This document shows, one piece after another, positions 3,031-59,661 of a DNA stretch of 64,000 nt (the stretch's first letter is position 1; the number at the start of each line of letters is the position of its first letter). The DNA is taken from contig DATCHW010000016.1 of NCBI GenBank assembly GCA_036508135.1, positions 2,500 through 66,499 of the forward strand, written 5' to 3'. The position numbers were made by a program, and so were the translations under genes. This DNA comes from Ignavibacteria bacterium. Lineage in GTDB: Bacteria; Bacteroidota; Ignavibacteria; Tepidaquicellales; Tepidaquicellaceae. The notes beneath the pieces are model-generated. The model was not told the DNA's origin and ran no database searches. It was given only the letters and a program-made list of their open reading frames with translations.

Positions 3031-4665
3031 ATGAAAAAATTTTTTTCACTTTTATTAGTTTATGTTTTTTGCAATTCTATTGTATTAGCATATACGGGAG
3101 AGATAATAAAATCGATTAACACACCCGGAAAATTTCCAACCGGAATTTGTTATGATGGAAAGAATTTGTGGGTCGCCGACAGAGAAACTGATAAAATTTA
3201 TTACATTAATCCTGATGATGGAAATATTATCAGAGAAATAGAATCTCCTGCTTATTGGCCTATGGGATTAGCCTGGGATGGACAGTATCTCTGGAATGCA
3301 GATTTCAGAGGATTAACAGACAATTCGGAAGAATATAACGGATTGATATTTAAAATTGACCCGCTGGATGGAACAATTTTAAAAACTCTACAATCTCCGA
3401 CAAAAAGCCCCATCGGACTAACATGGGACGGAAAGTATTTGTGGTGTGTTGATGATAAAGCAGATAAAGTAATACAGTTCAGTCCGGTTGACGGAACTAC
3501 TATAAAATCATTCCAATCACCGGCTGCAGATCCGACCGGAATATGTTTCGACGGAACATATTTATGGATTTCTGACAGGATTACAGATGAAATTTATATG
3601 GTCGACCCTAATTCAGGTATTGTGATTATTATCGCCGATGCACCTGGAAAATATGTTCACGGGCTTGCGGTAGATAATAATAAATTATGGGCAGTGGATT
3701 ATGAAGACGGCAAAATATATCAATTAAAAATTCGGGATAATGAAAAAATGTACCAAAAAAATGCTCAATATCACAAAGTAATGTTTCGACACAGCGTTAA
3801 ATGTTTCGGACCAGGAAAAATTAAAACGCTTGATGTAAATATAGCACTCGCAGAAAACAGGGATAACCAGACAATACTGGAAGACATTAAGTTCAACATT
3901 CCACCGACAGATATTTTGACAGATAAGTGGGGACAGAAAACAGCCTGGTTTAGTTTCAGAGATGTAAAACCGGGAGAAAGTAAGGATATTATCGTTGAAA
4001 CAATTTTCCAATCTTTCGAGGTAAGATATTTTATTTATCCTGAATTTGTTGGTTCATTAGAAAGTATTCCCGCAGACATAAAAGAAAGATATTTAGAGGA
4101 TGATGAAAAGTATCAGATTCACAATGAAATAATTCAAAAGGCATTAAAAGAGGCAGTAGGTGATGAAAAAAATCCTTACTGGATTATGAGGAAAATACAT
4201 CAGTACGTGATAGGTCATTTACATTATCTTATGGATGGGATGTGGGATACAGCACCTACTGTGTTAACTAATACACATGGTTCCTGTTCTGAATATTCTT
4301 TTGTATTCATTTCTCTATGCAAAGCTGCAGGACTCCCAACGAGGTATGTAGGATCGACCTGGATTAAGAAAGACGAAAAAAGTACGGATGAAGTTTACCA
4401 CAGATGGGTCGAAGTATATCTTCCAAATTACGGATGGATACCGACAGACCCTACACACGGAGACAGAGATTCCCCGCGAGATCAGGCATTTCCAATAGGT
4501 TATGTCAGCAACTCAGCTTTGATAACAACACAGTCAGGAGGAGGTTCAGAGTCACTGGAATGGACATATAACAGTAATATCAGCTATACAACTGAGCCCA
4601 AAACCAATTTGAACATAACTCATTTTGCAGATTGGGAACCTGTGGATAAGACAAAGTATAAATAA
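3031..4665 (+). CDS. Secreted beta-propeller repeat / transglutaminase-like domain protein
   Basis: 544 aa with a signal peptide. About six ~45-aa repeats (P.G...DG..LW..D...D.I). C-terminal transglutaminase core Cys/His/Asp (GSCSEYSF, HRWVEVYL, GWIPTDPT). Confidence 0.8.
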   Translation: MKKFFSLLLVYVFCNSIVLAYTGEIIKSINTPGKFPTGICYDGKNLWVADRETDKIYYINPDDGNIIREIESPAYWPMGLAWDGQYLWNADFRGLTDNSEEYNGLIFKIDPLDGTILKTLQSPTKSPIGLTWDGKYLWCVDDKADKVIQFSPVDGTTIKSFQSPAADPTGICFDGTYLWISDRITDEIYMVDPNSGIVIIIADAPGKYVHGLAVDNNKLWAVDYEDGKIYQLKIRDNEKMYQKNAQYHKVMFRHSVKCFGPGKIKTLDVNIALAENRDNQTILEDIKFNIPPTDILTDKWGQKTAWFSFRDVKPGESKDIIVETIFQSFEVRYFIYPEFVGSLESIPADIKERYLEDDEKYQIHNEIIQKALKEAVGDEKNPYWIMRKIHQYVIGHLHYLMDGMWDTAPTVLTNTHGSCSEYSFVFISLCKAAGLPTRYVGSTWIKKDEKSTDEVYHRWVEVYLPNYGWIPTDPTHGDRDSPRDQAFPIGYVSNSALITTQSGGGSESLEWTYNSNISYTTEPKTNLNITHFADWEPVDKTKYK

Positions 4666-4872
4666 AATTCGTACTGGAATTTAATTAACCAAGACCCTGA
4701 TCATTGCTGGGGAATCTTCCACATATTTGAAACCGAAGTTGGCAGTTTTTCGAAATCGGAGTTGGTGGATTTTCGAAGTAAGTTTGGATTAGATATTGAG
4801 AGAGATTTATACTTTGAGGAGGTGAACGCAAAAGAACTTTATGAAAGTTTATTTAATGTAAAAAAGGGCTAA
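4666..4872 (+). other. In-frame open extension after the stop of 3031..4665 (truncated C-terminus or gene remnant)
   Basis: 68 sense codons without Met continue in the same frame directly after the TAA at 4663-4665. The peptide is protein-like (..DPDHCWGIFHIFETEVGSFSKSELVDF..). The second stop sits inside the terminator hairpin. Confidence 0.3.
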
Positions 4873-4884
4873 CTACCCTTTTTT
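4860..4884 (+). terminator. Rho-independent terminator
   Basis: AAAAAGGG-ctaacta-CCCTTTTTT hairpin followed by a T-run. Confidence 0.6.
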
Positions 4885-5208
4885 GATATTTGTAGTTCCT
4901 AAGGTTACGAGGATTGTTCGGATTCTCACTACGTTTTCGCTACGTTATCACTCCGTTGGGATTCAGCAAAACTCGACCCCCGGTAGAGCAAGAATAGTTA
5001 TTCTTTTTATTATTTAGTATTCAAGATTGTTCTAAATCCTTTATTAAATTAATCATTTTTCACAACTTAAAACACATTAGCGAGGAAAATCAATAATTCA
5101 ATAAAAATGATTAAGAAGAATATATCATCAAAACAAGATTTGTTTTGATTTATTGAATTTTATTGATTTCCATAACCTAATTCTATTTAATAAACTGAAA
5201 AATTACTA

Positions 5209-7431
5209 ATGAAAAATTTCATTACTAATAGCTCCCAGAATAATCTTAAAAAGCGACTTACCGAACTCATCAAGAACTCAGATGAATTAAAATTCCTTGT
5301 TGGTTTCTTTTACTTTTCGGGAATAAGAGAGTTATATGATAGTCTTGTTAAAAATCCTGACACAATCGTAAAAGTTCTTGTCGGATTGAATGTGGATAAA
5401 TTAAACTATAATCTTATAGAATACGAAGAAAACGAAAATGAATTATCCGATGCTGAAAGAAGTTACAATTTTTTTGAATCCGTAAAGAAATCACTCAATA
5501 ATGAACAATTCGACACTAAGGAATTTTATAAACAGGTCCGTTATTTTCTTAAATTAATTAAAGATGGTAAATTAATAATCCGGAAAACATATGAACCAAA
5601 TCATGCCAAAATATATATATTCAAATTAAACGATTCACAAGTCGGAAGAAGAAACTTATTCATAACAGGAAGCAGTAACTTAACAAGAGCGGGATTAACA
5701 ACACAGGAGGAATTCAACGTTGAACTAAGCGATTACGGTTTTGAAGATACTGAAGAATATTTTGATTCTCTTTGGGAAAAAGCTGTTAAAATCACAGAGG
5801 ATGACACTACAAAGAAAAGATTGATTGAGGTAATAGAAAAAGAGACGTTAGTCAAAGATATAACTCCTTATGAAGCTTTTGTTTTGGTTCTAAAATGTTA
5901 TCTCGATTCTTTTGAACAAAAAGAGATTGGCGAATCGCTCATTAACACTTTAATAAAAAATGATTATAAACCCTACAGTTATCAATTAGACGCAGTAAAA
6001 CAAGGTCTTGCAATAATTGAAAAGAACAATGGTGTTATGATAGCCGATGTTGTTGGTCTCGGAAAAACCATTATCGCGTGTTCAATAGCAAAAGAATTAA
6101 GAAAACGCGGATTAGTTATTTGCCCTCCGGGGCTGATAGGTGATAAAAATAAAAATTCAGGATGGAAAAAATATTCGGAAGAATTTGGATTGCAGGATTG
6201 GGAAATTCGTTCTTCAGGTGACCTTGAAAATATCGCTGAAATAATGAAAAAACTAAAAGATATAGAGGTTGTAATTATAGACGAAGCTCACAGATTCAGA
6301 AATCAAGATACACAGGATTACGAATATTTAAAAAATTTATGCAGGGATAAAATCGTTATACTTCTAACGGCAACCCCTTTTAACAACAGACCGGGTGATA
6401 TACTTTCACTTCTTAAATTATTTATAACCCCGAAAAAGTCAAGCATTACACTTGAAGATAATCTGGTTGACAAATTTAAAATATTTAAAGGACTTTTTGA
6501 CCGTTTGGGATATATTAAAAAATATCATAGTTCAAAAGATGAAAGTAAAAGAGCAAAAGCTCAAAATTATTATAAAGGACTGTTTGAAGAGAATGTAATA
6601 GATTTAAAGAAAGTAAAACAACGCTCCCAATATTTAGCAAAACAAATCAGAGATGTGATAGAGCCTGTAACGATAAGAAGAAACAGGATTGACCTTCAAA
6701 ATAATCCATTCTACAAAGAAGAGGTAAAAGAATTATCAATCATAAAAGACCCGCAAGAATGGTATTTTGAACTGACGAAAGAACAATCAATATTTTATGA
6801 TAAAATCTTAACGCAGTATTTTGCAGACCCTGACGAAGGCGGGCTATTCAAAGGTGCGATATACAGACCATTTGATTATGAGCAGAAAATAGAAGACGAG
6901 AAAAAATTGAATGACAAGCAGAACTTTGAAAGACTGCAACAAAGAAACTTATTTGACTTTATGAGAAGGCTGCTGGTAAAAAGATTTGAAAGCTCTTTTG
7001 GGTCGTTCAAATGCAGTTTAGATAATTTTCATAACATTACAAAAATAGTCAAAGAATTTATTATTAACTCAAAAGGTAAGTTTATACTTGACAGGAAACT
7101 AATAAGGGATATTTATGAAGATAATATTGATGGTATTGAAAAAGCATTGCTTGAATATTCTGAAAAACTTACCGCAGGTGCCTATCCCAAAAACTACAAA
7201 ATATATGATGTAAATAAATTCGATAAAAAAGATGAGTTTCTTTCAGATATCGAATCGGATATAAATCTATTTGATAAAATATTAAAGGAATTAATTGAGT
7301 TAAAATTAGTAGATAACGATCCCAAAACGGATTGTTTGTTAAAAAATCTTGACAAAGTATTAAATGAAAAGCCCAAGAAGGACGAGCCCAAAAGAAAAGT
7401 CATAATATTTTCCGAATATACGATACAGTGA
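5209..7431 (+). CDS. PLD-family nuclease domain fused to SNF2/SF2 helicase, N-terminal part (gene interrupted by a frameshift)
   Basis: 740 aa. HKD motif (HAKIYIF...GSSNLTRAGL). Helicase motif I (VVGLGKT), II (VIIDEAHRFRN) and III (LLTATPFNN). The ORF stops between the two RecA lobes. Confidence 0.8.
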   Translation: MKNFITNSSQNNLKKRLTELIKNSDELKFLVGFFYFSGIRELYDSLVKNPDTIVKVLVGLNVDKLNYNLIEYEENENELSDAERSYNFFESVKKSLNNEQFDTKEFYKQVRYFLKLIKDGKLIIRKTYEPNHAKIYIFKLNDSQVGRRNLFITGSSNLTRAGLTTQEEFNVELSDYGFEDTEEYFDSLWEKAVKITEDDTTKKRLIEVIEKETLVKDITPYEAFVLVLKCYLDSFEQKEIGESLINTLIKNDYKPYSYQLDAVKQGLAIIEKNNGVMIADVVGLGKTIIACSIAKELRKRGLVICPPGLIGDKNKNSGWKKYSEEFGLQDWEIRSSGDLENIAEIMKKLKDIEVVIIDEAHRFRNQDTQDYEYLKNLCRDKIVILLTATPFNNRPGDILSLLKLFITPKKSSITLEDNLVDKFKIFKGLFDRLGYIKKYHSSKDESKRAKAQNYYKGLFEENVIDLKKVKQRSQYLAKQIRDVIEPVTIRRNRIDLQNNPFYKEEVKELSIIKDPQEWYFELTKEQSIFYDKILTQYFADPDEGGLFKGAIYRPFDYEQKIEDEKKLNDKQNFERLQQRNLFDFMRRLLVKRFESSFGSFKCSLDNFHNITKIVKEFIINSKGKFILDRKLIRDIYEDNIDGIEKALLEYSEKLTAGAYPKNYKIYDVNKFDKKDEFLSDIESDINLFDKILKELIELKLVDNDPKTDCLLKNLDKVLNEKPKKDEPKRKVIIFSEYTIQ

Positions 7432-9747: not shown

Positions 9748-12700
9748 ATGAGCAGTGAAAAATTAGATGATATTATAAAAGACTTTCAAATCGGAAAGTT
9801 TACGCAATTATTCCGTGAAAAAAACAGAGACTTTAAGCCGAGAGAAGAAAACCTCGAGAGATATAATGATGATTTATTTAAAGAAGGTTTGAAACTCGGA
9901 GAAATAATATTTTCAGATACGAACAAATTAATCGTCTGCGGGTTCAAAGTGAAACGGGAACTCTCCGAAAGAAGTTGTAAAAAACTTCAGTATGATAAAT
10001 CCAGAAAAATTTTAAAAGAAGAAAGATACGATTCCGGTATATTTATTTTTTATGATTCTGATGGGAACTTTCGATTCAGTTTAGTATATGCAATTTATCT
10101 TGGGAATAGAAGAGACTGGAACAATTTCAGAAGGTTCACCTATTATGTAAATAAAAAATTAACAAATAAAACATTTTTAAAACAGATAGGCAGTTGTGAT
10201 TTTAGCTCAAACGATAAAATAAAAGGATCTTTTTCTATTACAGCAGTCACAGACCTATTTTACAAAGAATTTTTTGATGAGCATTTCACTAAAATGGTTG
10301 ACTCGCTAATAGAAAAATTCGACCTTGAAGATGAGAAAGCACGAGATTTTGTATTACTTTTTTGTATCAGAATAATATTTATCGGTTTTATTCAAAAGCG
10401 TAAATGGATTGGTAAAGATGAACTTTTTATACTGAATTTTTTTAAAGAATACGAAATAAAATTTTACAGTACCGATAAATTTTACGAGAAGTGGTTAACA
10501 CCTTTGTTTTTCGAGGCATTAAATAATCCTCCCGGACGAAAAGTAGCTTATCAAAACAATGAATTTTCAAAGGAAACTGAGGAATCGCTTCAATTGGCAC
10601 CTTATCTAAATGGAGGTTTATTCAAAAAGAAAACCAGTTTTGATGATGAAAGTTATTACTTGCCCGATAAAGACATAAAAAACTTTTTTGAATTCTTATT
10701 CTCACATAGTTTCACGATTGAAGAAAATTCTTTTGAAGATGAAGACCTACAGTTAAACCCGGAATTTCTCGGAATTATTTTCGAAAGACTGGTAAATAAA
10801 GAAAACGGAGCAGTTTATACTCCCCGGACAGAAGTAGATTTTATGTGCCGTTTAAGTCTTGTAAAATGGCTTGAAAAAAACACTTCGAAGAGCATTCAGA
10901 AAAACAACTTATATGAACTGTTTTTTCGTGAAATCGGAGATGGTAAAGATACTGATGACATTCAAAAGGAGGGAAGTTTTTCAAAGAAAGAAATTGAAGA
11001 AATTATTTCACTTCTTGAAAATATTTCAATATGTGACCCTGCAGTCGGTTCCGGTGCCTTTCTTGTGGGTATGTTATTGATTTTGGATGAAATAATTTTG
11101 AATCTAAAACAAAGAATCGGAGCAAAATATGACGATTCTTTTGAAAGAAAGAAAAATATTATTGCAAATTCTCTTTATGGTGTTGAAGTTCAGGAATGGG
11201 CTGTTTGGATTTGTCAATTAAGGCTTTGGATATCATTATTTATAGATGCTCCGGAAGATATGAAGGATTCTCAAACTGCAATTTTACCAAGCCTCGATTT
11301 TAAAGTAAGACAGGGAGACTCATTAGTACAAAGAATCGGAAGTAAAATGTTCCCTGTTACCGGACATGCTCAATTAACAAAATCTATTAAAGATAAAGTT
11401 ACAAAACTAAAGAATATTAAAGTTGATTATTTCTTAAATAAATCAGACTTTGGAGAATTGATTGTCAAACAAAATGAAAATAAACTTTTTATTGAAATTA
11501 TAAATGAAGAAATTTACGAAATAAAAGATACCCTGAAGAAAAAGAAAGGTAAAGAAAAAGTAGAAAAAATTAATCTCTTTCATTCCGATATATCAGAACA
11601 AGAAGTAATAGAATATAATAAAGAAGAAATATCGGAACTTGAAAATTTGTTAAATGAATTAGAAACTCAAAAAAGTCTTATCACTGAAAATAAACCTTTA
11701 ATTTGGAATATTGAATTTGCAGAGATATTTGTAGAAAAAAATGGTTTTGATCTAATCATCGGAAATCCACCTTATGTTCGCCATGAAGATATTGAAGATC
11801 CGACCGGAAAGATTAAAGATAAAAAAGAATATAAGAGTTTACTCGAAGAAATGGTAAGGATTGATTATCCCGACTATTTCAGACCGAAAATTAAAATTAA
11901 TGCGAAATCGGATTTATATATTTACTTTTATCTCCGCTCATTAAAGTTATTAAATAAAAATGGATATCACTGCTTTATATGTTCAAATTCCTGGCTTGAT
12001 GTAGGATATGGAGCATGGTTTCAAAAATTTCTACTTGATAAAGCTCCAATTGATTTTATTATAGATAATCATTCTAAACGAAGTTTTGAATCTGCTGATA
12101 TCAATACAATAATCAGTTTTATAAATGCACCTCAAAAGCAAGTTACACAAAATCATTATATTAAATTTGTAGCATTTAAAAAACCCTTTGAAGAAACAAT
12201 CTTTACGGAATATTTACTAGATATTGATAATACAAAATCAATTAATAATGGTGAGAATTATAGAGTATATCCGATAACTAATAATGATTTATTATCTTCG
12301 GGAACTGAGTATGATTCAGATGAACAAGAGAAACTTAATATGGGGAAATTTATAGGTGACAAATGGGGTGGAAAATATTTAAGAGCACCATTTTTTATGC
12401 AAAAATATTTTAAATCAGAAAATTTAATAAAATTCAACGATCTAATAGATATTAAATATGGACTCAAGACAGGAAAAGTAAAATTTTTCTATATTAAGGA
12501 TGAAATAATAAAGGAATTTAATATTGAAAAAGAGTTCTATCATCCAATTATAACTACGTCGCAAGACTTAGATACTTTATTTGTTGAATCGAATGAGTTT
12601 TTGTTTAATTCAAATCTTTCAAAATTCAAATTAAAGGGAACAGGGGCATTAGAATATATAAAATATGGAGAGAATAACAATATGAGTATTGGATCATCGG

Positions 12701-13962: not shown

Positions 13963-16602
13963 CTACCAGCTTTTTGAAAACGTTGCCCTGAATATTATAT
14001 CATTATTATCACCTTCTGCGAATACTTTTTCCCTGAAAAAATTCTTTATAACACTAACCGATAAGTTCCCGATATTGTAAACAGGAATGGTTGAATTGAA
14101 AGATAAAACCGTATTCGTATTTAATCCTGAAGTTCTTTGATAGCTGATCGATAATGTATTATTCCATTTATCGAACAATGTGAGGCTGCTGCTTAAATCA
14201 TAAGAATATATATTTGCCGGGGCAAGTGAATCCGTCAGAACTGAGTTGATAGAAGTAATATTAACTCCTGCCGAGATACTAAATGGTGATTCAAATGAAA
14301 CGGTTTCATTTAGAAGAAAATTATATATAGTATAATCGCCCAACCTCTTTTGTGATTGGTTAGTCTGTCTTGATAATGAAGCCATAGTACCAAGAGTATA
14401 TTTATTTACAGGAATATTGATACCTGTGGTTAAAGAAAACGCGGAAGCGAAGTTATCGATTTTTAATGAATCAATTACTGCGTCATTTTTTTCCGAGTAC
14501 GGTGTGTAATTTACTATCAGATAAGGCAGTTTATCAAGGAACATACTTAAAGCAAAATCATATCTGTTTTTATCCATTGAAGTTTTTTCACTTCTCAGTC
14601 TTTCGGTTGATAATTTCAGGTTAATCTTCTTATCGGCAAAATATTGCTCTATTCCGATAGTGAATCCTTTTACTCCATTAGTAAAAGACGGCGCTCCCAG
14701 AGAAGAATATCCAAGCCCGATATATTTATATCCGCCTTTAAGTTTTGTATTTGATTCGGGAATATTGACAACTGATTCAATATTATACATTAAATCAAAA
14801 TGCGTTCCCATTTTAACGCTTAACAGATTTTTGGCAAAACCGGGAATGTCATCGCTTACTAAATCCGGCGCTCTTAGGTCGTCAGTAATAACCGAGCCTG
14901 AAAACTCTCCTTTTACCACAACCCTGTCTTTAAATAATCTCAGCTTTCCATCTGTACCTAGTATCACATTTTCCATAGGCGACATACTTGAAGTTACTTT
15001 CAGTGTATCATTCAAATCCAGCGAATTAATATTATCTTTTGCCTTCATAAATGTAATATGAAAATGAGAATTATCTTTCCCGCCAATTCCAATTTTTCCT
15101 GCAAAAAGTTGTCGCGCAAAGTTTACGGAATCAATTGCATCAAGATTTTTTATTCCTGAAACGGCTAAATATAATAAACCGGTTGTATATTCAAGGTCGA
15201 GACCTGTTACTTTTGTTCCGTTCAATATATATTTTGAATAACTCGGATATGTTTCGCCGATACCAAGCGTATTAAAACTTGAAAAAAACTTTAATAATCC
15301 GCTTACGCTATTCCCTGCCTTATCTTTTGCGTTATTTATTTCTTCCTGAGTTTTATCTTTTAATTTTTGTTCTATTTCGGTTTTCTTTTCTTCAATTTTT
15401 TGTGTTACAATTTCCTTAAGTTTTGCCGGGTCAAACAGCAAAGCAAAACTGTTGATGTTTTGCTTGAATTCCTGCTGCTGCGTATCGTAATAAAAATTAA
15501 ACGTGAAAGGCAGATCGTATATGGAAACTGTCGGGTCAAACTGAACGCTTAATAAATTTCTCGGAATTTGCGAACCGGTTTTTTGTCTGTCCGTAAATTT
15601 ACCCGATACATTATAGCTTCCCGAGAATTTAAAAGGAGATTTTCCTTGAATTTCACTGAAATCAATTAACGGCGGTGAGATTAAATTCAAATTCTTGGTT
15701 TCACTCAATCCACTAAAACCGCCGATGCCCGATTTTTGTTTTATAAGGTCGGGTAAATTAATGAATGTTTTCTTGTCCTCTTGAAATGTTTTTATGTTTT
15801 TTTCATTAATATCTTTGGACGATAGTGTTCTTCCGTTATACGAGAACTCCCTCACTTCACTTTCTGATAGCAGGCTTCCGTTCAGATATGTTTTCACTCT
15901 CCATGCATATCTCCTTCCGTTTTCCAATGGTAAAGCCGCAATAGGATATTGAAAAAGTCCTGTCATTATATTTTTCTTGAAGTATATATATGGATTAGCC
16001 GTCATCGCATAGTAAGCAGTCTGCCTTTCAAGTATTTCGACAATATTGATTTCGTATGTAACATTATTTCCCGGAGTGATAGGTGATGGCGGCATCCAGT
16101 TAAAAATTGGGAGCATCGTTTTTATTTCGTCCTTATCCTGGGGCGAAATTAATTCACCTTTCACTGTCTGTAATACTTCGAAATCATTACAATACTCTGA
16201 AAGTAAAGTATTGGTTCCTTTGGAATAAACATATATGCAGATATTATATCTTCCTGACGGAAGCGAGCCGGTGGTTTTGAAATTATCATCTACTTCAGTT
16301 GAATATTTTTTCAAATCAATCGGGGAAATAGAAGCTGCGTTTATTAATTTCGGTACTAAAGTAGTCTGCAGTGTGAAACTCGAAGAGGTTGCCTCGACAA
16401 GCATTGTATTGTTTTTTTTGACAATCGCTTTAAGGTAGATATCAATAGCACTGCCTGAATTTGTCAAGCTCACTTTCCAGAGGTCTGAGGCGTTGAACCG
16501 GAACGGCGGCGGCGGATGTAATATAGCCGTAACTTGGGAGTACGATATATTTGAAAAGAACAATAATGCAAACAGAGTTAAAACTATTTTATAGGTTTTC
16601 AT
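13963..16602 (-). CDS. Secreted protein: shared N-terminal module plus putative outer-membrane beta-barrel
   Basis: The long ORF is 13963..16629; the likely start is MKTYKIV.. (signal peptide). The N-terminus is a diverged copy of the module found in the two upstream genes (..LISPQDKDEI...FNW...TYEINIVE...FQYP...GRRYAWRVK). The C-terminal ~600 aa is strand-rich and ends ..ATFSKSW. Confidence 0.75.
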   Translation of the reverse strand: MKTYKIVLTLFALLFFSNISYSQVTAILHPPPPFRFNASDLWKVSLTNSGSAIDIYLKAIVKKNNTMLVEATSSSFTLQTTLVPKLINAASISPIDLKKYSTEVDDNFKTTGSLPSGRYNICIYVYSKGTNTLLSEYCNDFEVLQTVKGELISPQDKDEIKTMLPIFNWMPPSPITPGNNVTYEINIVEILERQTAYYAMTANPYIYFKKNIMTGLFQYPIAALPLENGRRYAWRVKTYLNGSLLSESEVREFSYNGRTLSSKDINEKNIKTFQEDKKTFINLPDLIKQKSGIGGFSGLSETKNLNLISPPLIDFSEIQGKSPFKFSGSYNVSGKFTDRQKTGSQIPRNLLSVQFDPTVSIYDLPFTFNFYYDTQQQEFKQNINSFALLFDPAKLKEIVTQKIEEKKTEIEQKLKDKTQEEINNAKDKAGNSVSGLLKFFSSFNTLGIGETYPSYSKYILNGTKVTGLDLEYTTGLLYLAVSGIKNLDAIDSVNFARQLFAGKIGIGGKDNSHFHITFMKAKDNINSLDLNDTLKVTSSMSPMENVILGTDGKLRLFKDRVVVKGEFSGSVITDDLRAPDLVSDDIPGFAKNLLSVKMGTHFDLMYNIESVVNIPESNTKLKGGYKYIGLGYSSLGAPSFTNGVKGFTIGIEQYFADKKINLKLSTERLRSEKTSMDKNRYDFALSMFLDKLPYLIVNYTPYSEKNDAVIDSLKIDNFASAFSLTTGINIPVNKYTLGTMASLSRQTNQSQKRLGDYTIYNFLLNETVSFESPFSISAGVNITSINSVLTDSLAPANIYSYDLSSSLTLFDKWNNTLSISYQRTSGLNTNTVLSFNSTIPVYNIGNLSVSVIKNFFREKVFAEGDNNDIIFRATFSKSW

Positions 16603-16640: not shown

Positions 16641-18014
16641 CTATTTTACCAAAACAGGCCAAACTACTTGAACTGTGTCTTTACAGATTACTCTCCCATC
16701 CTTATTAAGCCATTCATAAATTACTACAATCGGTTCTGATGAGGAATTTTCAAAAGTAATACTTCCTAAATCGGTTAAGCCAATAGGAATATCGCCTGAA
16801 TTGTTTGTCCACTTTATTCCTGATGAACCCGGAGGGAATTTAGATGGTGTTCGTTTCCAGCCATCCGGTACATCGGAGGCTGATATGATTTTAGTATTTG
16901 CAGTAATTGTAAAACTTACAGGTCTATTTGCAGGTAAACCGCTATAATTATTGGTGATGCTAATGTCATAGTCTTTAATATCTATAGAGATTCTCATTTT
17001 CTCGTCGCCTTTGTTGAGGGCTGTATCTCCCTCTCTTGTGCCGGGTGAGATTTTCATTTTCTCGTTGCCTTTGTTGAGGGCTGTATCTCCCTCTCTTGTG
17101 CCGGGTGAGATTTTTCTTTTCTCGTCGCCTTTATTGAGAGCTGTATCTCCCTCTCTTGTTCCGGGGGAGATTTTCCTTTTCTCGTCTCCTTTATTATTTT
17201 GCACAATATTAAATTTGAAATCCTTACATGTAATTTCCTGCGCGATTAAAAAATTTCCCCATCTGTCAAATATACTCATCGTGCTCTGTAAATCTCCGAT
17301 TTTAACCAGCCATACATATTTCTTTCCGGTTTCAAATTTCGGAGCAGACGCGGGATACTGGAAAAGTGTCGGCGAAATTCCTTCCTTTTCGAAGAATGCT
17401 TTATTTCTTTTAATTGCTTCATCGGGAGATTGACTCTCTTTTAATTCCACGATTCTTAACGTATATGTCTGGTTTGAGCCCGGTGCTTTCGTATGCATCC
17501 ACGTAAATACGGGATTATCAATTCTCAATTCCTCTTCATCTCTCGGAGAAATAAGCTGAGGTGCATCTCCGCCTGTTATTTTCTGGTCGAAGCAGTCTTC
17601 TCCTGCAACTGAGTTATTTGTATATCTGAGTTCACAGCATATTTTATAATCTCCCGGAGGCGCCCCCCCTGTATTCATAAAAGATTGTTTATACTTAGGG
17701 TCTTTTGCCAGATAACTCACGTCGGGTATTTTCGGTAAATCGGATACCTTGAAATTAGTTGTGCCTTTTTTAACCACGAATGTCATCGTCTGACCTGTAG
17801 CTATCAGCTCGCTGTTTTCGTTGTTTGTCATTGAGCCGTAAAGGTAAGCTGTGAAAGTTTCACCGGTGTTTATAATTGTTGCGTTCCATAAATCAGCCGC
17901 TCTCAATTGATTTAACGGAGCACGTTTCATTCTGAATGTAACCTGAGCAAATAATGAACCCGAAGTTGATACGAGAATAATTACTGCGATAAATAATTTA
18001 ATATATTTTTTCAT
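16641..18014 (-). CDS. Secreted protein, paralogue of the N-terminus of the 1686-aa giant, with a 20-aa tandem-repeat linker
   Basis: 457 aa with a signal peptide. The first ~250 aa are nearly identical to 18061..23121. Then (GDEKRKISPGTREGDTALNK) x3.5. The C-terminal domain resembles one module of the giant protein. Confidence 0.85.
   Translation of the reverse strand: MKKYIKLFIAVIILVSTSGSLFAQVTFRMKRAPLNQLRAADLWNATIINTGETFTAYLYGSMTNNENSELIATGQTMTFVVKKGTTNFKVSDLPKIPDVSYLAKDPKYKQSFMNTGGAPPGDYKICCELRYTNNSVAGEDCFDQKITGGDAPQLISPRDEEELRIDNPVFTWMHTKAPGSNQTYTLRIVELKESQSPDEAIKRNKAFFEKEGISPTLFQYPASAPKFETGKKYVWLVKIGDLQSTMSIFDRWGNFLIAQEITCKDFKFNIVQNNKGDEKRKISPGTREGDTALNKGDEKRKISPGTREGDTALNKGNEKMKISPGTREGDTALNKGDEKMRISIDIKDYDISITNNYSGLPANRPVSFTITANTKIISASDVPDGWKRTPSKFPPGSSGIKWTNNSGDIPIGLTDLGSITFENSSSEPIVVIYEWLNKDGRVICKDTVQVVWPVLVK
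16986..17195. repeat. 60-bp tandem repeat, ~3.5 copies, in-frame inside 16641..18014
   Basis: Consecutive 60-nt sequence lines 16981-17200 are in perfect register (..ctcgtcgcctttgttgagggctgtatctccctctcttgtgccgggtgaga..). Confidence 0.95.
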
Positions 18015-47104: not shown

Positions 47105-49294
<2,190 letters not shown>

Positions 49295-50972: not shown

Positions 50973-51215
50973 TTTATCGTTGGGGGAGGTTAATCCGAAC
51001 GAAATTAATTTCTTATTTAAAGAAAAAAAAGAAATTCTCTCATCCACAACAAACGCCTGTATCCAGGCTCGTGCGGTTTATCTTTGTAAACATGCTTCAG
51101 AAATTGTGCTCACCTCCTTCACCGCATCAGGAAACTCGCTCACCTTTTCCCGCTTCATCATCATCGGGTATGTAAACAGCATAACACTTCTGCTCTACTT
51201 CCGGAAGTATCAATA

Positions 51216-51590
51216 TTATCCCTTAAACTTATCCTCCACCTCCTTCACCGCATCAAGAAACTCGCTCATCTTCTCCATCGCCACACCTTTCCCGACATTC
51301 GAAACGCTCTTCACTTCCTGCTGACGTATTTTCCACAACGGATGGCTTTCTGTAGCGCGCTCTTCCTTATCCGCCACCCAGTAAAACAAATCACTCGGCA
51401 GGCACTTCAGAGCCACGCACAATTTCTCTATATGCCCGGGAGTTAGCCCAGCCATTTTCTCCGTCCCGAGTCTCGAAGCCACATTCCGCGAAAACCCTTT
51501 TCTCCTCAAAAAAGCATAAGGTTGAGTAATTCCTCTCAGCTTCATCAGATTTTTAATGTTATATTTCAGCATAAATCTCCTTTTCTGCAA
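51216..51590 (-). CDS. XRE-type helix-turn-helix DNA-binding protein
   Basis: The likely start is MLKYNIKNLMKLRGI.. at 51572. HTH ..LRRKGFSRNVASRL.. and ..IEKLCVALKCLPSDLFYW... Sits next to the 21-bp repeat array. Confidence 0.7.
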   Translation of the reverse strand: MQKRRFMLKYNIKNLMKLRGITQPYAFLRRKGFSRNVASRLGTEKMAGLTPGHIEKLCVALKCLPSDLFYWVADKEERATESHPLWKIRQQEVKSVSNVGKGVAMEKMSEFLDAVKEVEDKFKG

Positions 51591-51653
51591 ATATAATAAT
51601 TCATTTCCACTTAATTAACACATTTTTCGAAACATTATTTTACGCCGCCCCTT

Positions 51654-52072
51654 CTCAATTTTATACTTCCAAACTCAATTAAAATCCTTTTCCTCTCAAT
51701 TCAAACACTTATCGTGTCAATTTATACTCTTGCCAGGTCGATTTCCACCCTTGGACACTCAATTTATATGTCTAACTACTCAATTGATATGCATTGCCAC
51801 TCAATTAATATGCATTGCCACTTAATAAATATGTATAAACACTCTATTAATATGCATACCTACCCAATTGATATGCATAGACACTTAGTTTGTATGTCTA
51901 AACACTTAATAAATATGCATAAACACTCTATTAATATGCATACCTACTCAATTGATATGTATAGACACTTAATTTGTATGCTTAACCACTCAATTTGTAT
52001 TACCGGTGATTAGATTTCTTCATCTTCCAATCCAATTTCCACCCCCGCCAATTCAATTTCCACCCCCGCCTT
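51654..52072. repeat. Array of 20 contiguous 21-bp direct repeats (iteron/centromere-like)
   Basis: The CTCAATT-type core recurs at 51654, 51674, 51695, 51716 ... 52052, spaced exactly 21 bp after the first unit. The best units read CACTCAATTRATATGCATNNN. An 84-bp higher-order repeat spans 51819-51986. Confidence 0.95.
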
Positions 52073-52184
52073 TTCCCTAATAGTTGATTCAATCTGACCT
52101 CTAAAGGGCAGAGCCAGAAAGGGGATATCCCCTTTTATCAATACTTCTGACTCACTTGCGGCCAAACTTCCGCTGACTTTAAAG
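52066..52184 (-). pseudogene. PHA-granule-like gene fragment (both ends replaced)
   Basis: ORF 52010..52216 encodes ..FKVSGSLAASESEVLIKGDIPFLALPFRGQIESTIREKA, then runs into the repeat array. It shares its 5' breakpoint with the 54696..54860 copy. Confidence 0.7.
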
Positions 52185-52359
52185 CAGGATACAGAATACT
52201 CCTTGGGGAATTTCATCTAAACTACGAGCTTGTGGGTTACTTTTAATTTCATTCAAAAGCATATCCGCAAATTTCTTTGGAATTTATAACATTCAATTTT
52301 GTTCTTTCTTATGTTTTTAAAAAAATTAAATAATCCCACACGGTTTATTTTTGTTATTT

Positions 52360-52737
52360 TCACCAGACATAAGCGTCTCCTACTCTTCTAACTTCTGATG
52401 GTGCTCTGTTGTGAATTAACATTGCAGTACTTAATGCAACTAAATAGTTATAATACTTTTCAATTTGAGCTTCATTGAAATGATGAATACAATATCCGGT
52501 TAAATGAATCTTCAATCTTTCTTTATCAAACTCTTTTGCAATTCTACTAATTGCAATTGATTTTAAGAAGATAGCTCTTGCTGTGCCACAATCAATTTTG
52601 TTATTTAAAATACACAATAATTCTTTAGTTCCTGCATTAACGTCTTTTTCACCTTTTGGGAACATAGAATCAAACATTTTATCTAATCGTTCCTTTAATG
52701 GAATTTTTTTATGTCTAAGAAAACTTAAGAAGCCCAT
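52360..52737 (-). CDS. Hypothetical protein
   Basis: 125-aa ORF, no motif recognised. Confidence 0.45.
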   Translation of the reverse strand: MGFLSFLRHKKIPLKERLDKMFDSMFPKGEKDVNAGTKELLCILNNKIDCGTARAIFLKSIAISRIAKEFDKERLKIHLTGYCIHHFNEAQIEKYYNYLVALSTAMLIHNRAPSEVRRVGDAYVW

Positions 52738-52876
52738 AATTTGTACTTTATCATTTGCCTACTCTAAATCGGTTTTCGGCTTTCCCCGTTATTTTATTCC
52801 TCTCAACAGTTTGCTTATACGAACATTTTCAAAACACATACAATTTAAAAAATAATTAATAAGGTAAATTGTCATA

Positions 52877-54139
52877 TTAATCTTTCCAAAATGCATTCGA
52901 CATTAATTCTTGCTCTTCTTTTGAAATGTTATGTTTTTTTGCATAAGTATTCCAATTACTTACAACTTTTTTAATTATGTTAATAATTTCTTTTGCATTT
53001 TTAGAGTTAACCCTAAAAAATTCTGCGACTTCTAATGCTAATTGTAAATCAAGAGAATTATCATTATCAGAAATATTTAAATTTAAACCGGTTCCCATTG
53101 GATTTGGATTAACATCATAGGCAGGTGACAAAGTCCAACCAGCTTGAGTTAGAAAAAAACCGTGATTTCTTAGATGGTCATCTGTGTTTTTGACACAAAT
53201 ATTAAAGACAATTCTTCTCCATATCTCTTCAAGGTCAGTATTAGTATTACTTCCGTTTCTAATTAAGAATTCTGCTAATTCCAAATAACTAACACCATCT
53301 GCATGGTCTGTATATCCTAACATAGTCATTGCGGAAGCAAAATGTATTCTTTTTCCATTTTCTTCTCTATCAAATCTTTTTGTAAGATACGTATGATGAT
53401 TTACCGTAAACTTTTTAACCATTCCTTTTGCTACGTTTATTCCTGATTTGACTGCTAACTCATTTGTGATCATTTCCCATAAGCCTTTGTCAATATCATC
53501 TTTTGTACTTGGAAATTTAGCAATCCATAAATGTTTTTTTTCATCTATTACACTTGCTTTCGGTCTAGCACCCCCTAATGAAGAACCGGGAGCAATTAAT
53601 AAATTCAACCATTTCATATAATCTGGATCTTCACTTATATTTTCCTTTTCCAATTGTAAACTGGCAAACTCTAAATCTCTAATTTCAGCCCAAGGAGGAG
53701 TAGCCATTTTTTTGTTATCGTTTAAGAATGGTCCTTCATTATTTTCTTTAAATCTTAAAGCTCCCATTCTATGTCCGTCAAATACACCTAATAGATAATC
53801 AGTTTCTAACAGAGTTTTTTCGCTTCTCTTTTCTCGTTTTGCTAAAGCTGCTTCACGTCTTTTCATCAATACCCTTCCCCATCTATCAGGAGACGAATCT
53901 AAAAAAACTCCAAAATTCTCTTTTTCATCTCTCAAATATTGAGAGCCTCTATATAGCTGTAAATCCGGATCGAGTGTTTGAGCTATCCCTGATTTTAACC
54001 ATTTCTCGTCATATTCAAAAGAAAAAATTTCTTTACCTCTTGAAAGAACAACATTTAATATTCCCATCAGTTCTGGTCTTTCAAATTCTCTCCAATCAGC
54101 ATATACGTATAATTGTTTTTTACTTTCCTTATGTGCCAT
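52877..54139 (-). CDS. hipA: HipA-family serine/threonine kinase toxin
   Basis: 420 aa. N-terminal coupling domain (LYVYADW..GIL). Kinase motifs GGARPKASV and TDDHLRNHGF. Confidence 0.9.
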   Translation of the reverse strand: MAHKESKKQLYVYADWREFERPELMGILNVVLSRGKEIFSFEYDEKWLKSGIAQTLDPDLQLYRGSQYLRDEKENFGVFLDSSPDRWGRVLMKRREAALAKREKRSEKTLLETDYLLGVFDGHRMGALRFKENNEGPFLNDNKKMATPPWAEIRDLEFASLQLEKENISEDPDYMKWLNLLIAPGSSLGGARPKASVIDEKKHLWIAKFPSTKDDIDKGLWEMITNELAVKSGINVAKGMVKKFTVNHHTYLTKRFDREENGKRIHFASAMTMLGYTDHADGVSYLELAEFLIRNGSNTNTDLEEIWRRIVFNICVKNTDDHLRNHGFFLTQAGWTLSPAYDVNPNPMGTGLNLNISDNDNSLDLQLALEVAEFFRVNSKNAKEIINIIKKVVSNWNTYAKKHNISKEEQELMSNAFWKD

Positions 54140-54460
54140 TTATTTTGTTTTGATTTTAGGGGCTCTTTTCTTTTCTAATATTTTTGCGTCTTGAAGTTTT
54201 CGTCCAAGAATATCGTCTTTCGCAATATTTAATAGATCTTTTTCCAAACCCAATACAAAAATAACCTGTGCATATGCTCCCATTGAAACTCGAGGTGACC
54301 CTTTTTCAATTTGCCATAATGTAACTCTATTAACATCTGCTCTTTCTGCAACTTGAGTAGTGCTTAGTTTTCTTCGTAGTCTGGCAAGTTTTATATTTAT
54401 TCCCAAATCAGCCAAAATTTCTATGACTGAAGGGGATATTCCTGAATTTATTTCTTTCAT
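54140..54460 (-). CDS. XRE-family HTH antitoxin (HipB-like)
   Basis: 106 aa. ..LSTTQVAERADVNRVTLWQIEKG... Its stop abuts the hipA start. Confidence 0.8.
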   Translation of the reverse strand: MKEINSGISPSVIEILADLGINIKLARLRRKLSTTQVAERADVNRVTLWQIEKGSPRVSMGAYAQVIFVLGLEKDLLNIAKDDILGRKLQDAKILEKKRAPKIKTK

Positions 54461-55534: not shown

Positions 55535-55843
55535 TCATTTCTTCTGCAACAATTCCTCCGCCTTTTCCCTAATAGTTGATTCAATCTGACCTCTAAAGGG
55601 CAGAGCCAGAAAGGGAATATCCCCTTTTATCAATACTTCTGACTCACTTACGACCAAACTTCCGCTGACCTTGAAGCCTTTAATCTTGAATTTAAATTGT
55701 CCGGTGCTGCCCGACCAGGATTCTTCTAAATCACTGATTCGGTCTGAATGTTGGGCTTTTAAATCCGGAAGGAATTGTTGGATTCGGGTTAAAGCTTCTG
55801 TTTGAGTTAGTTCGTGTGGTACTTTTATTTCTAGTTTTGGCAT
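55535..55843 (-). CDS. Polyhydroxyalkanoic-acid-system (PHA_gran_rgn)-like small protein, the only intact copy
   Basis: 102 aa. MPKLEIKVPHELTQTEALTRIQQFL...W.G....F.F...G..V.G.L.V....V.I.G..PF...PF...IE..I fits the family pattern as I recall it. Confidence 0.6.
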   Translation of the reverse strand: MPKLEIKVPHELTQTEALTRIQQFLPDLKAQHSDRISDLEESWSGSTGQFKFKIKGFKVSGSLVVSESEVLIKGDIPFLALPFRGQIESTIREKAEELLQKK

Positions 55844-58194: not shown

Positions 58195-59661
58195 TTACTG
58201 TTTGTTATTTTCCTTCTTATTATTTGAATTCGATTGTGTTGTATTGTCTTTTAGAACCGGATTAACTTTAGGTGCCGGATTAACTTTAGGTGCCGGATCA
58301 ACCTTAGGAGCCGGATTAACTTTAGGTGCCGGATTAACTTTAGGTGCCGGATTAACTTTAGGTGCCGGGTTAACCTTAGGAACAGTGTTAATATTCGAAT
58401 TTGTATTTCCGGACTTTATTATATTCTCGCTTTTATTACTTGTATTATTTGTGTTTCCGGTTTTAATACCCGTGTTATTTGTGTTCTCTGTTTTTATAAC
58501 CGTTTTTTTATCATTATTAGTATTGTTCAAATTTTCTTTTGTTTTTGTGTTTATAGTGGTATTAATTTTTGTATTTTTATCATTTGCAGAATTTTTATCA
58601 ACACCTTTATTAATAATTTCAGTTTTTGGTGCGGGTTCTTTAGTTATCTTTTTTTCTACTGTTTTAGTTACAACAGCATTTTTCTTTTTTGTATTTATAT
58701 TAATTTTCGGGTCAGTTTTAGTTACTGATTTTTTATCTACGACTTTTTCGATTGATTTCACATCGGGACCGGAATTAAAAAGTTTTTTACCTTCCTGTTT
58801 CAATCCTATAGTCTGATTTGAGTTAGTTAATATTCCTTTATTGTTTTTATATGGCATAACTGTTGAGACACTAACTTCTTTTGTGAAATCTTTTGTTTTG
58901 ACAAAAACCCAATGGTTCTCGTTAAAATGATGGTTGCCCCATGATGTAAAATTCCATTCTCTATGACGTATGCGTGGAGATATCGGATACCACCCTTCAT
59001 AATTTCTATGATGAGACCAGAAAACCCAGGCGGGAGCCCATCTTCGTCCCGGTGACCATACCCAGCCATAAACAGGAGAATACCACCATCTTCCGTAATG
59101 ATAAGTTGCCCAACCCCATCTGTAATTAGACTCCCAGCTCCAGCCCCTAAATGTCCAGGTCCAGCTTCCATTTGTATAAGGATTCCATCCTTCACCCGTA
59201 TAATGCGAGTTTGGTATCCAGATTGTATTAGTGTAAATATCCTCGTCCATAGCATCATTTTCACCGGAGGTAATATTTTCAGGGTCAACTTCATTTTCAT
59301 TTATTGATACAAATTCACCGTCAGAAGAAAGTGAATTCTGCAATGTCATAAGGCTGATTGTATCTTCGGTATTAGCTGTTTCATCAGAATAACTTGAATC
59401 TTCGGAGGGAATCGAAGCATCTGTTAAATACGAATCTTCGGAAGAATATGAATTAACAGGGATATATGAATTAGATGTAAAATCTGAGTTAACATCAGGA
59501 TTGTTTGCATTATAGATATTATCGTTCTGATTTGAATTTTCCGAAAGATTTTTTTTGCCGGTTACCAAGGAGCGGGTATTACTAACCGAATTTGTACTAT
59601 TATTGATTGCCGCAAATAAAACCGCAGCAAACAAGCTAATTAATATTACTATTGTTTTCAT
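58195..59661 (-). CDS. Secreted Trp-rich-core protein with a low-complexity Asn/Lys/Pro tail (DUF6600-like?)
   Basis: 488 aa with a signal peptide. Central ..WGWATYHYGRWWYSPVYGWVWSPGRRWAPAWVFW... C-terminal (PAPKVN)x7. Confidence 0.7.
   Translation of the reverse strand: MKTIVILISLFAAVLFAAINNSTNSVSNTRSLVTGKKNLSENSNQNDNIYNANNPDVNSDFTSNSYIPVNSYSSEDSYLTDASIPSEDSSYSDETANTEDTISLMTLQNSLSSDGEFVSINENEVDPENITSGENDAMDEDIYTNTIWIPNSHYTGEGWNPYTNGSWTWTFRGWSWESNYRWGWATYHYGRWWYSPVYGWVWSPGRRWAPAWVFWSHHRNYEGWYPISPRIRHREWNFTSWGNHHFNENHWVFVKTKDFTKEVSVSTVMPYKNNKGILTNSNQTIGLKQEGKKLFNSGPDVKSIEKVVDKKSVTKTDPKININTKKKNAVVTKTVEKKITKEPAPKTEIINKGVDKNSANDKNTKINTTINTKTKENLNNTNNDKKTVIKTENTNNTGIKTGNTNNTSNKSENIIKSGNTNSNINTVPKVNPAPKVNPAPKVNPAPKVNPAPKVDPAPKVNPAPKVNPVLKDNTTQSNSNNKKENNKQ
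58257..58382. repeat. 18-bp tandem repeat x7 (encodes PAPKVN repeats)
   Basis: CCGGATTAACTTTAGGTG units are contiguous from 58257. Confidence 0.95.

Follow-up and report, generated by a model that had tools for sequence, protein, structure and literature searches.

Organization of the locus

The window analyzed here is a 64,000-nucleotide stretch of an Ignavibacteria bacterium (contig DATCHW010000016.1, positions 2,500 to 66,499), in which a tandem array of 21-bp direct repeats lies upstream of a small minus-strand gene for a helix-turn-helix (HTH) protein of the HTH_26 family. Printed in a 21-nt register from position 51651, the array consists of 20 consecutive units (51651-52070), and a (C/T)C(A/G/T)ATT-type core stands at a constant offset in all 20 of them. 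The sequence CTCAATT starts at 51654, 51674, and 51695, so that the first interval is 20 bp, while the other 19 are exactly 21 bp. Over the array, the self-match at a lag of 21 was 0.65, compared with 0.29 ± 0.023 (maximum 0.37) in 2000 mononucleotide shuffles and with 0.21-0.37 at all other lags between 15 and 29. Tandem Repeats Finder reported the stretch 51756-51995 with periods of 21 (11.4 copies, 72% matches), 63, and 84 bp (score 326), and listed the two edges (51674-51722 and 52027-52070) as separate 21-bp arrays. The segments 51819-51902 and 51903-51986 form an 84-bp higher-order repeat and match at 77 of 84 positions. A preliminary description of this DNA, made from the letters of the sequence, had given the number of units, the 20-bp first interval, the 19 intervals without a slip, and the higher-order repeat, all of which were confirmed by these analyses.

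Clear mutual likeness is restricted to the 12 central units (51756..52007, minus strand), which include the 84-bp repeat and have the plus-strand consensus CACTCAATTAATATGCATAAC (28.6 bits), reading ...ATGCATATTAATTGAGTG in the orientation of the gene. Each unit is divided into a conserved core and a variable half, and an ATGCAT palindrome is present inside the unit. The edges decay, as had been noticed before. The five promoter-proximal units (51651..51755, minus strand) are degenerate and keep only a (C/T)CAATT or TCGATT core, the first one (51651) being 1 bp out of phase. At the other end, three degenerate distal units (52008..52070, minus strand) abut a truncated gene of the PHA_gran_rgn family, and the two outermost of them (52029-52070) represent a sub-type (TCAATTTCCACCCCCGCC, also AAT[CT]CAATTTCCACCCCCGCC), matching each other at 20 of 21 positions.

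The 18-mer unit consensus, with up to three mismatches allowed, occurs nine times in the window (0.16 expected), always within the array. The array is not an artefact of assembly, since a 98-kb contig from a second assembly (L060) is 100% identical to the window across it, and the homologous arrays described below are likewise identical across independent assemblies (L002/3/5/7 and L056/57/58). The 99-aa open reading frame (ORF) on the plus strand is only the translated repeat, as had been proposed, because the ORFs that read through such arrays differ in strand from locus to locus, and their peptides are unrelated. There are no spacers between the contiguous units, so the array does not qualify as a clustered regularly interspaced short palindromic repeats (CRISPR) array.

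The HTH_26 gene and its putative promoter

The gene beside the array (51216..51572, minus strand) encodes a protein of 118 aa with a match to the Cro/C1-type family HTH_26 (PF13443, E=3.8e-13) and is the putative array-binding protein. The start most likely is the ATG at 51572, because the resulting N-terminus MLKYN is conserved in all homologues, and therefore the nearest weak unit ends 79 nt upstream of the ATG. This replaces the TTG at 51590, which had been taken as the start and had placed the array 64 nt upstream. PF13443 spans residues 11-74 of the 124-aa ORF translation, which correspond to residues 5-68 counted from the ATG at 51572, and the protein is composed of an N-terminal HTH domain (residues 1-65) and a C-terminal helical tail. 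In agreement with the earlier assignment to XRE-type HTH proteins, the AlphaFold2 model is all-helical and XRE-like, with a predicted local distance difference test score of 70 overall and of 78-94 in the HTH part. Foldseek returned generic XRE folds only (E>=0.01), with Stl, SinR, VanU, CylR2, and the C-proteins C.BclI and C.AhdI as the top matches, and a profile search of the PDB with the protein gave nothing meaningful. As a known defence component the protein had no match in PADLOC or NCBIfam and a marginal one in PHROG.

The stretch between the array and the gene (51573..51650, minus strand), which is conserved with the closest homologous locus (L055), is the putative promoter and 5′ leader. 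Read from the sequence, it contains an AAGGAG ribosome-binding site (51582..51577, minus strand) and a putative Bacteroidetes-type −7 element, TATATTTG (51595..51588, minus strand), which fits the Bacteroidetes −7 consensus TAnnTTTG. The TAnnTTTG motif recurs at an equal position in L002, L008, L010, L011, and L028, and a TTTG −33 motif lies between the array and the ATG in L008, L010, and L028. Since the TATATTTG motif and the ribosome-binding site stand between the array and the ATG, the array would lie upstream of the putative promoter and outside the transcript.

This position bears on the idea that the array acts as RNA, for example as a transcribed type III antitoxin of the ToxI kind or as a guide-like repeat RNA in a defence island. 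The neighborhood of the homologous modules is rich in defence genes, the array lies upstream of a small gene and is co-oriented with it, as ToxI is before toxN, and the folding score of the array RNA is z=−3.4. That score is explained by ATGCAT palindromes pairing between units. Promoter motifs stand between the array and the gene, no terminator was found after the array, and no Rfam family matched within it. The 21-nt units are too short for ToxI-like pseudoknots of 34-40 nt, and the partner is an HTH protein lacking a PADLOC match rather than an RNase of the ToxN/AbiQ type. An RNA function is therefore very improbable. The VIPR tandem-repeat RNA system, which has 5-nt GGY/NN repeats and a RAMP protein, is unrelated to the array (10.64898/2026.04.26.720920).

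Conservation of the array-gene pairing

A word-indexed search yielded 12 close relatives of the HTH protein with 57-81% identity, and scans of GTDB genomes and JGI metagenomes added further loci from metagenome-assembled genomes (MAGs) of Ignavibacteria and Kapaibacteria. More distant homologues (29-41% identity) were found in Cytophagales, in Chitinophagaceae, in an uncultured Bacteroidetes bin, and in a MAG labelled Chryseobacterium. A 21-bp tandem array lies directly upstream of the gene in every readable contig of the close relatives (L001, L002-7, L008, L009, L010, L011, L016, L028, L055, L056-58, and L059 among the loci with upstream DNA). Many contigs end within the array, and this explains the breaks of short-read assemblies at such loci. 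When the 700 nt preceding each homologous gene were analyzed for periodicity, a lag of 21 or 42 came out on top in all close homologues except L012, and also in L026, L027, L045, and L048-53, whose proteins are 29-36% identical (29-31% for the array-bearing loci L026, L027, L045, and L048-52); this was the case upstream of no other genes analyzed.

The unit sequences are specific to the locus, and in the close clade the core is always on the sense strand of the gene. The core is TTAATTGAG on the sense strand of the HTH gene in the window and TTAAATTGAG likewise in homologous loci. Close proteins share cores: the window and L055 have CATAnnA(A/T)TTGAG, the loci of the proteins P0003/4/5/8 have TTAAA(T/G)TGA, and those of P0009 and P0011 have CTTAAT(T/C)GG, with the related CTCAATCCC in P0007. 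The similarity of the units follows that of the HTH domains (Mantel r=0.61, p=0.0004). In close-clade loci with a resolved proximal edge, the array stops 63 nt before the ATG, a spacing from which the window differs, and a degenerate promoter-adjacent unit was seen in homologous loci too. The copy number is four in L016, 11 in L011 (with the same unit as L016), at least 15 in L028, and 20 in the window. In every locus checked, the unit motif is confined to the array and never occurs near neighboring genes. A role of the HTH protein as a regulator of the cargo genes beside the module, which had been considered, was rejected on this ground.

The full-length family comprises about 405 clusters at 50% identity (profile search, E<=1e-10). 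L027 carries a tandem HTH_26-HTH_26 fusion of 238 aa (9977-10693) and L053 two adjacent HTH_26 genes (~5690-6240), both with a 21- or 42-bp array upstream, and four of the 150 matches listed in the profile search are two-domain HTH-HTH proteins. Two further candidates did not hold. A second conserved partner gene was sought among ORFs of 227-312 aa that neighbor the HTH gene in L012, L026, and L048, but these showed no BLASTP similarity. The apparent presence of five paralogous modules in one MAG dissolved when a 3.3-kb stretch of L015 proved 97% identical to L009 and the L011 copy of the HTH gene 98% identical to that of L009, so that the contigs of this bin are mostly strain variants of one hotspot and not paralogues.

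Plasmid, phage, origin, and centromere tests

The preliminary description had compared the architecture with that of plasmid and phage iterons and of partition centromeres. What stands of this description, on strong comparative grounds, is the idea of a phased array bound by the neighboring HTH protein; neither a plasmid or phage iteron origin nor a centromere for partition is supported. No homologue of the HTH protein was found by tblastn in 72,556 plasmids (PLSDB) or 50,697 phages (INPHARED), nor in a scan of IMG/VR, where one exact match to the unit (L061) is a single chance site and not an array. The homologous modules reside on chromosomal MAG contigs of up to 184 kb, beside housekeeping genes in several MAGs.

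Contiguous direct repeats within the 17-22 bp range and in helical phase, as in iteron origins of plasmids, phages, or excisable islands, are present. The seven 22-bp iterons of the R6K gamma origin and those of P1 and F are similar in unit length and contiguity. The other components of such an origin were not found. Pfam scans of the ORFs between 24.8 and 63.7 kb revealed no Rep gene, in line with the earlier statement that neither a Rep nor a partition ATPase gene is nearby, and the neighboring 118-aa HTH_26 protein has an XRE-type rather than an initiator fold. A DnaA-box cluster is absent: TTWTNCACA occurs eight times in the 64 kb (9.4 expected), and the one copy close to the array, at chance level, falls within the HTH gene. 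The sequence on either side of the array shows no distinct AT-rich block for unwinding. Together with the chromosomal context and the lack of plasmid or phage relatives, these results largely refute an iteron-type origin, and we give it very little chance.

Were the array a centromere-like or positioning site of the kind found in ParR/parC, omega, and StbA/stbS, the HTH protein would coat it so that DNA is segregated or positioned, and the module would be a remnant or a working part of an integrated mobile element. The direct-repeat array at the putative promoter of the gene for its candidate binding protein fits this architecture well, and the region in the window is a mosaic island with att-like duplications. 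StbA of plasmid R388, moreover, works without a partition NTPase of its own. On the other side, no gene for a ParA, ParM, or TubZ nucleoside triphosphatase (NTPase) was found by Pfam in the neighboring ORFs of the window, and none was seen in the ORFs beside the module in L010, L016, L026, and L027, most of which were read and not domain-scanned. The protein is an HTH_26 rather than a ribbon-helix-helix protein, plasmid, phage, and IMG/VR homologues are lacking, and the module occupies a syntenic chromosomal position downstream of a Bax1-I gene in different lineages. A centromere function is thus quite improbable. Because the defining components of iteron origins and plasmid centromeres were looked for and are absent, the likeness to both is one of architecture only.

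A candidate multi-site operator

Our preferred interpretation, to which we assign a probability of about 55%, is that the adjacent 118-aa HTH_26 protein has its cognate multi-site operator in the array, with which it makes up a self-contained chromosomal module. From the conserved pairing of array and gene and the position of the putative promoter, we infer that the protein binds operators at its own promoter, and the array probably autoregulates the HTH gene. The Cro/C1-type HTH of XRE autorepressors is present, both as PF13443 and in the Foldseek matches to XRE folds; the palindromic operators of that class are not, the units being asymmetric direct repeats in a single orientation.

In the mechanism that we propose, each 21-bp unit, equal to two helical turns, presents a single asymmetric core that is about 10 bp long, resembles TTAA(A/T)TTGAG in the clade of the window, and always has one orientation, and protomers would consequently bind head-to-tail on one face of the DNA. 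They would touch each other, probably through the C-terminal helices, and build a cooperative nucleoprotein filament of four to about 20 protomers, which would end just upstream of the −33/−7 promoter of the HTH gene. Only at a high concentration of the protein would the degenerate units near the promoter be filled, which would result in negative autoregulation with a sharp set-point. Slippage or unequal exchange would homogenize the array and change its length. The tandem fusions and tandem genes fit head-to-tail contacts between protomers and the 42-bp super-period.

Several observations weigh against this interpretation. In the Cytophagales clade (33-35% identity; L017-25, L030-44, and L046), a lag of 21 or 42 was never the top periodicity and no array was found, and the paralogue P0012 (L012) has none either, so the protein can exist without one. 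Physical linkage and common descent could by themselves account for the correlation between units and proteins. Palindromes bound by dimers are the usual targets of XRE-type HTH proteins, and the units here are asymmetric, though ATGCAT lies inside those of the window. The C-terminal half of the AlphaFold2 model, to which the protomer contacts are ascribed, has low confidence. Four to 20 operators are far above the need of autoregulation, which suggests an additional function; conceivable, if speculative, further roles are those of a barrier, a scaffold for recombination, a titration buffer, and a site for positioning. Finally, the window array is more degenerate (72% matches) than those at other loci (92-97%) and may be decaying.

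The last point is shared with the view that the array is a neutral or decaying satellite, in which slippage during replication multiplied one or two ancestral operators and left additional copies without a function. The degenerate edges agree with this view, as do the 84-bp higher-order repeat, a recent duplication, and the differing copy numbers of the nearly identical loci L011 and L016. Arrays have, however, been kept down to about 29% protein identity, with a period fixed at 21 or 42 bp despite a complete turnover of sequence. Their orientation is constant, the units preserve a core against a variable half, and 19 intervals in the window passed without a slip of the period. Considering these features, we regard a functionless satellite as rather unlikely.

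Association with a defence-gene hotspot

In the close clade, the gene adjoining the module is nearly always a known or candidate defence gene. The neighbors include Cas13b (E about 1e-176), a dGTPase with PDC-S32, a ThsA-like SIR2 protein with a MutH-like gene, a PDC-S35 TIR protein, PDC-S33 (RelA_SpoT) with a PstI-type restriction-modification (R-M) system, an NB-ARC STAND protein with a MutH-like enzyme and a methyltransferase, an EcoRV-type R-M system with DUF4238, and an N6_N4 methyltransferase. The Cas13b gene (L028, 1049-4345; PADLOC) directly follows an array-HTH module whose 21-bp units, at least 15 in number, are nearly perfect, and the contig ends before any CRISPR array is visible. 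The neighbors of the module in the window are the 8xMP gene, a HepT-like ORF, and HipBA.

The loci L009/L015, L011, and L016 have a common left flank, consisting of the 3′ end of Bax1-I, the array, and the HTH gene, which is 91-98% identical, and a conserved right-flank segment of which ~190-350 bp could be aligned. Between these flanks they carry three different cargos, namely a TIR protein, a STAND protein with an R-M system, and an EcoRV-type R-M system. The right-flank segment continues in L016 and L012 into a 247-aa gene and an array-less HTH paralogue. Judged by this comparison of sequences, the locus is a cassette-exchange hotspot in Ignavibacteria and Kapaibacteria. That the pairing is a conserved family trait and that the module borders a defence-gene hotspot in the close clade both go beyond the preliminary description.

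The array coated with HTH protein might itself be the chromosomal landmark that creates or marks this hotspot, as a barrier to forks or transcription or as a scaffold for a recombinase, with autoregulation not being its main role. Long arrays of tightly bound repressors are known from lacO/tetO array studies to block replication forks. Besides the defence neighbors and the three cargos between conserved flanks, possible scars of the HTH gene could be cited for this idea. A 40-nt duplicate (51111..51150, minus strand), 93% identical to the 3′ end of the HTH gene, lies 66 nt past the stop codon of that gene and resembles a scar left by recombination, and a comparable 3′ fragment is found in L016 at 14833-15021, on the far side of the cargo. 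The counterevidence is that the modules of L010 and L026 stand between housekeeping genes on long contigs and have no cargo, that the cargo may lie on either strand, and that no recombinase was seen in any cargo. Ordinary homologous recombination also makes hotspots flanked by conserved genes without any special element, and the sample is small and made up of short contigs. We therefore consider it rather unlikely that the array shapes the hotspot instead of mainly controlling its own gene.

A more specific and equally speculative version would make the array-HTH pair an undescribed chromosomal element of Ignavibacteriota and Bacteroidota, in which a phased repressor filament marks or creates a landing pad for anti-phage cassettes via fork stalling and recombination, or acts as a timer or insulator gating newly acquired toxic defence genes. 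Although we hold this to be unlikely on present evidence, it would, if true, account for the swaps of Cas13b, dGTPase, SIR2, TIR, STAND, and R-M cargos directly beside the module.

Other features of the window

The window is a chromosomal stretch of an organism with a type IX secretion system and encodes several Por_Secre_tail proteins, the remaining genes being of ordinary metabolic and regulatory kinds. The minus strand carries, in this order, a full PHA_gran_rgn gene, DUF4404, a second PHA_gran_rgn fragment, hipB, hipA, a 125-aa ORF, a third PHA_gran_rgn fragment, the array, the HTH_26 gene, the 40-nt copy, the 8xMP membrane-protein gene, the HepT-like ORF (a weak match below the Pfam cut-off), and katG. 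The fragment next to the array (52067..52201, minus strand) is a 3′ fragment covering residues 51-95 of 102, and the array adjoins the point where its homology to the full gene ends. The last seven codons have been replaced by the array, in accordance with the earlier remark that the array had overwritten the end of a small-gene fragment. A 123-nt direct repeat, 95% identical, connects this fragment (52063-52185) with the full gene (55555-55677).

Seven copies or fragments of PHA_gran_rgn, all on the minus strand, are spread over 24 kb (34592-58019) between unrelated gene blocks, at 58019-57870, 55843-55535 (the full gene), 54881-54699, 52201-52067, 42757-42566, 40568-40341, and 34774-34592. 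From the sequence, this scatter looks like repeated insertion or recombination at one gene, in the manner of att-like accretion; no recombinase was seen. The fragment was discarded as a general attachment site of the module, as no such fragments are found in any other locus. A hipB-hipA toxin-antitoxin pair (52877-54460; HipA_C E=2.4e-48, HTH_31 antitoxin) is situated between two of the fragments. Just upstream of the 125-aa ORF (52360..52737), positions 52756-52789 on the minus strand gave the only Rfam match in the vicinity of the array, to the cis-regulatory RNA motif DUF805b; with 27.3 bits (E=1.8e-4) it stays below the gathering score of 35.6.

Further away, two perfect DnaA boxes, TTATCCACA (4641 and 5391; region 4641-5399), flank an intergenic stretch with several short tandem repeats (4729-5436), and the cumulative GC skew peaks at ~13-14 kb, where the gene orientation turns from plus to minus. 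Two other tandem repeats, 60 bp × 3.4 copies at 16987-17192 in the ORF 16641..18014 and 18 bp × 6.9 copies at 58257-58380 in the DUF6600 ORF 58195..59661 (92% matches each), are presumably coding repeats. The 726-aa ORF at 47105-49285 was read as katG on account of a translation similar to catalase-peroxidases and of a Pfam peroxidase match obtained with the same ORF of L060. Its G+C content is 45-47%, compared with 29-33% in its neighbors, which suggests a foreign origin or a strong compositional constraint.

Comparison with known systems

If the inferred binding holds, the module would provide a natural case, on a chromosome, of a small XRE-type protein that binds a long array of its own in strict phase, an architecture otherwise known mainly from plasmid centromeres, iterons, and synthetic lacO/tetO arrays. 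The pairing defines a recognizable HTH_26 subfamily, and each locus supplies its own protein-site pair and with it a testable DNA target for studying the specificity code. In Ignavibacteria, the module is a practical marker of a defence-gene hotspot that can be mined for new systems.

Among partition systems, ParR/parC of R1, omega, and ParG also have contiguous phased direct repeats at the promoter of the operon of the binding protein. Their proteins polymerize cooperatively on one face of the DNA and their arrays double as autoregulatory operators, as is proposed here. They differ in using ribbon-helix-helix proteins, units of 7-11 bp (20 bp in pSK41), and a ParM or ParA NTPase, and in being plasmid-borne; the present module has an HTH_26 protein, a 21-bp unit, and no NTPase, and is chromosomal without plasmid relatives. 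In StbA/stbS of the conjugative plasmid R388, too, an HTH-domain protein binds direct repeats, about ten in that case, upstream of its own operon and lacks a dedicated partition NTPase. The StbA repeats, however, are 9 bp long with a period of 11 bp, the system is plasmid-borne and tied to conjugation genes, and the likeness is architectural, HTH_26 being the only Pfam match of the HTH protein.

The iteron origins of R6K (gamma), P1 (incC/incA), F, and pPS10 likewise consist of contiguous 19-22-bp direct repeats about two helical turns apart that are bound by monomers of one protein, and P1 incA demonstrates that such arrays can serve purely as a titration or control locus. Such origins depend on a winged-helix Rep initiator together with DnaA boxes and an AT-rich element for unwinding, and all three are missing here. 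Type III toxin-antitoxin systems (ToxIN) resemble the module in having tandem direct repeats directly upstream of a small gene in phage-defence neighborhoods, but their 34-40-nt transcribed repeats, terminator, and endoribonuclease gene have no counterpart at the locus.

The XRE/Cro-C1 autorepressors SinR, SaPI Stl, the R-M C-proteins, and phage 186 CI have the same DNA-binding fold and a gene beside its own operators. They assemble into higher-order oligomers on multiple sites, as would be expected of the HTH_26 protein in the mechanism proposed above. Their operators number two to a few and are mostly palindromic, in contrast to the four to about 20 asymmetric sites in strict 21-bp register found here. 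The module therefore follows a known principle, a cognate protein with a tandem operator array, in a pairing of array and HTH_26 gene for which full-text searching of the literature returned no description, and its recurrent place beside exchangeable defence genes raises its interest.

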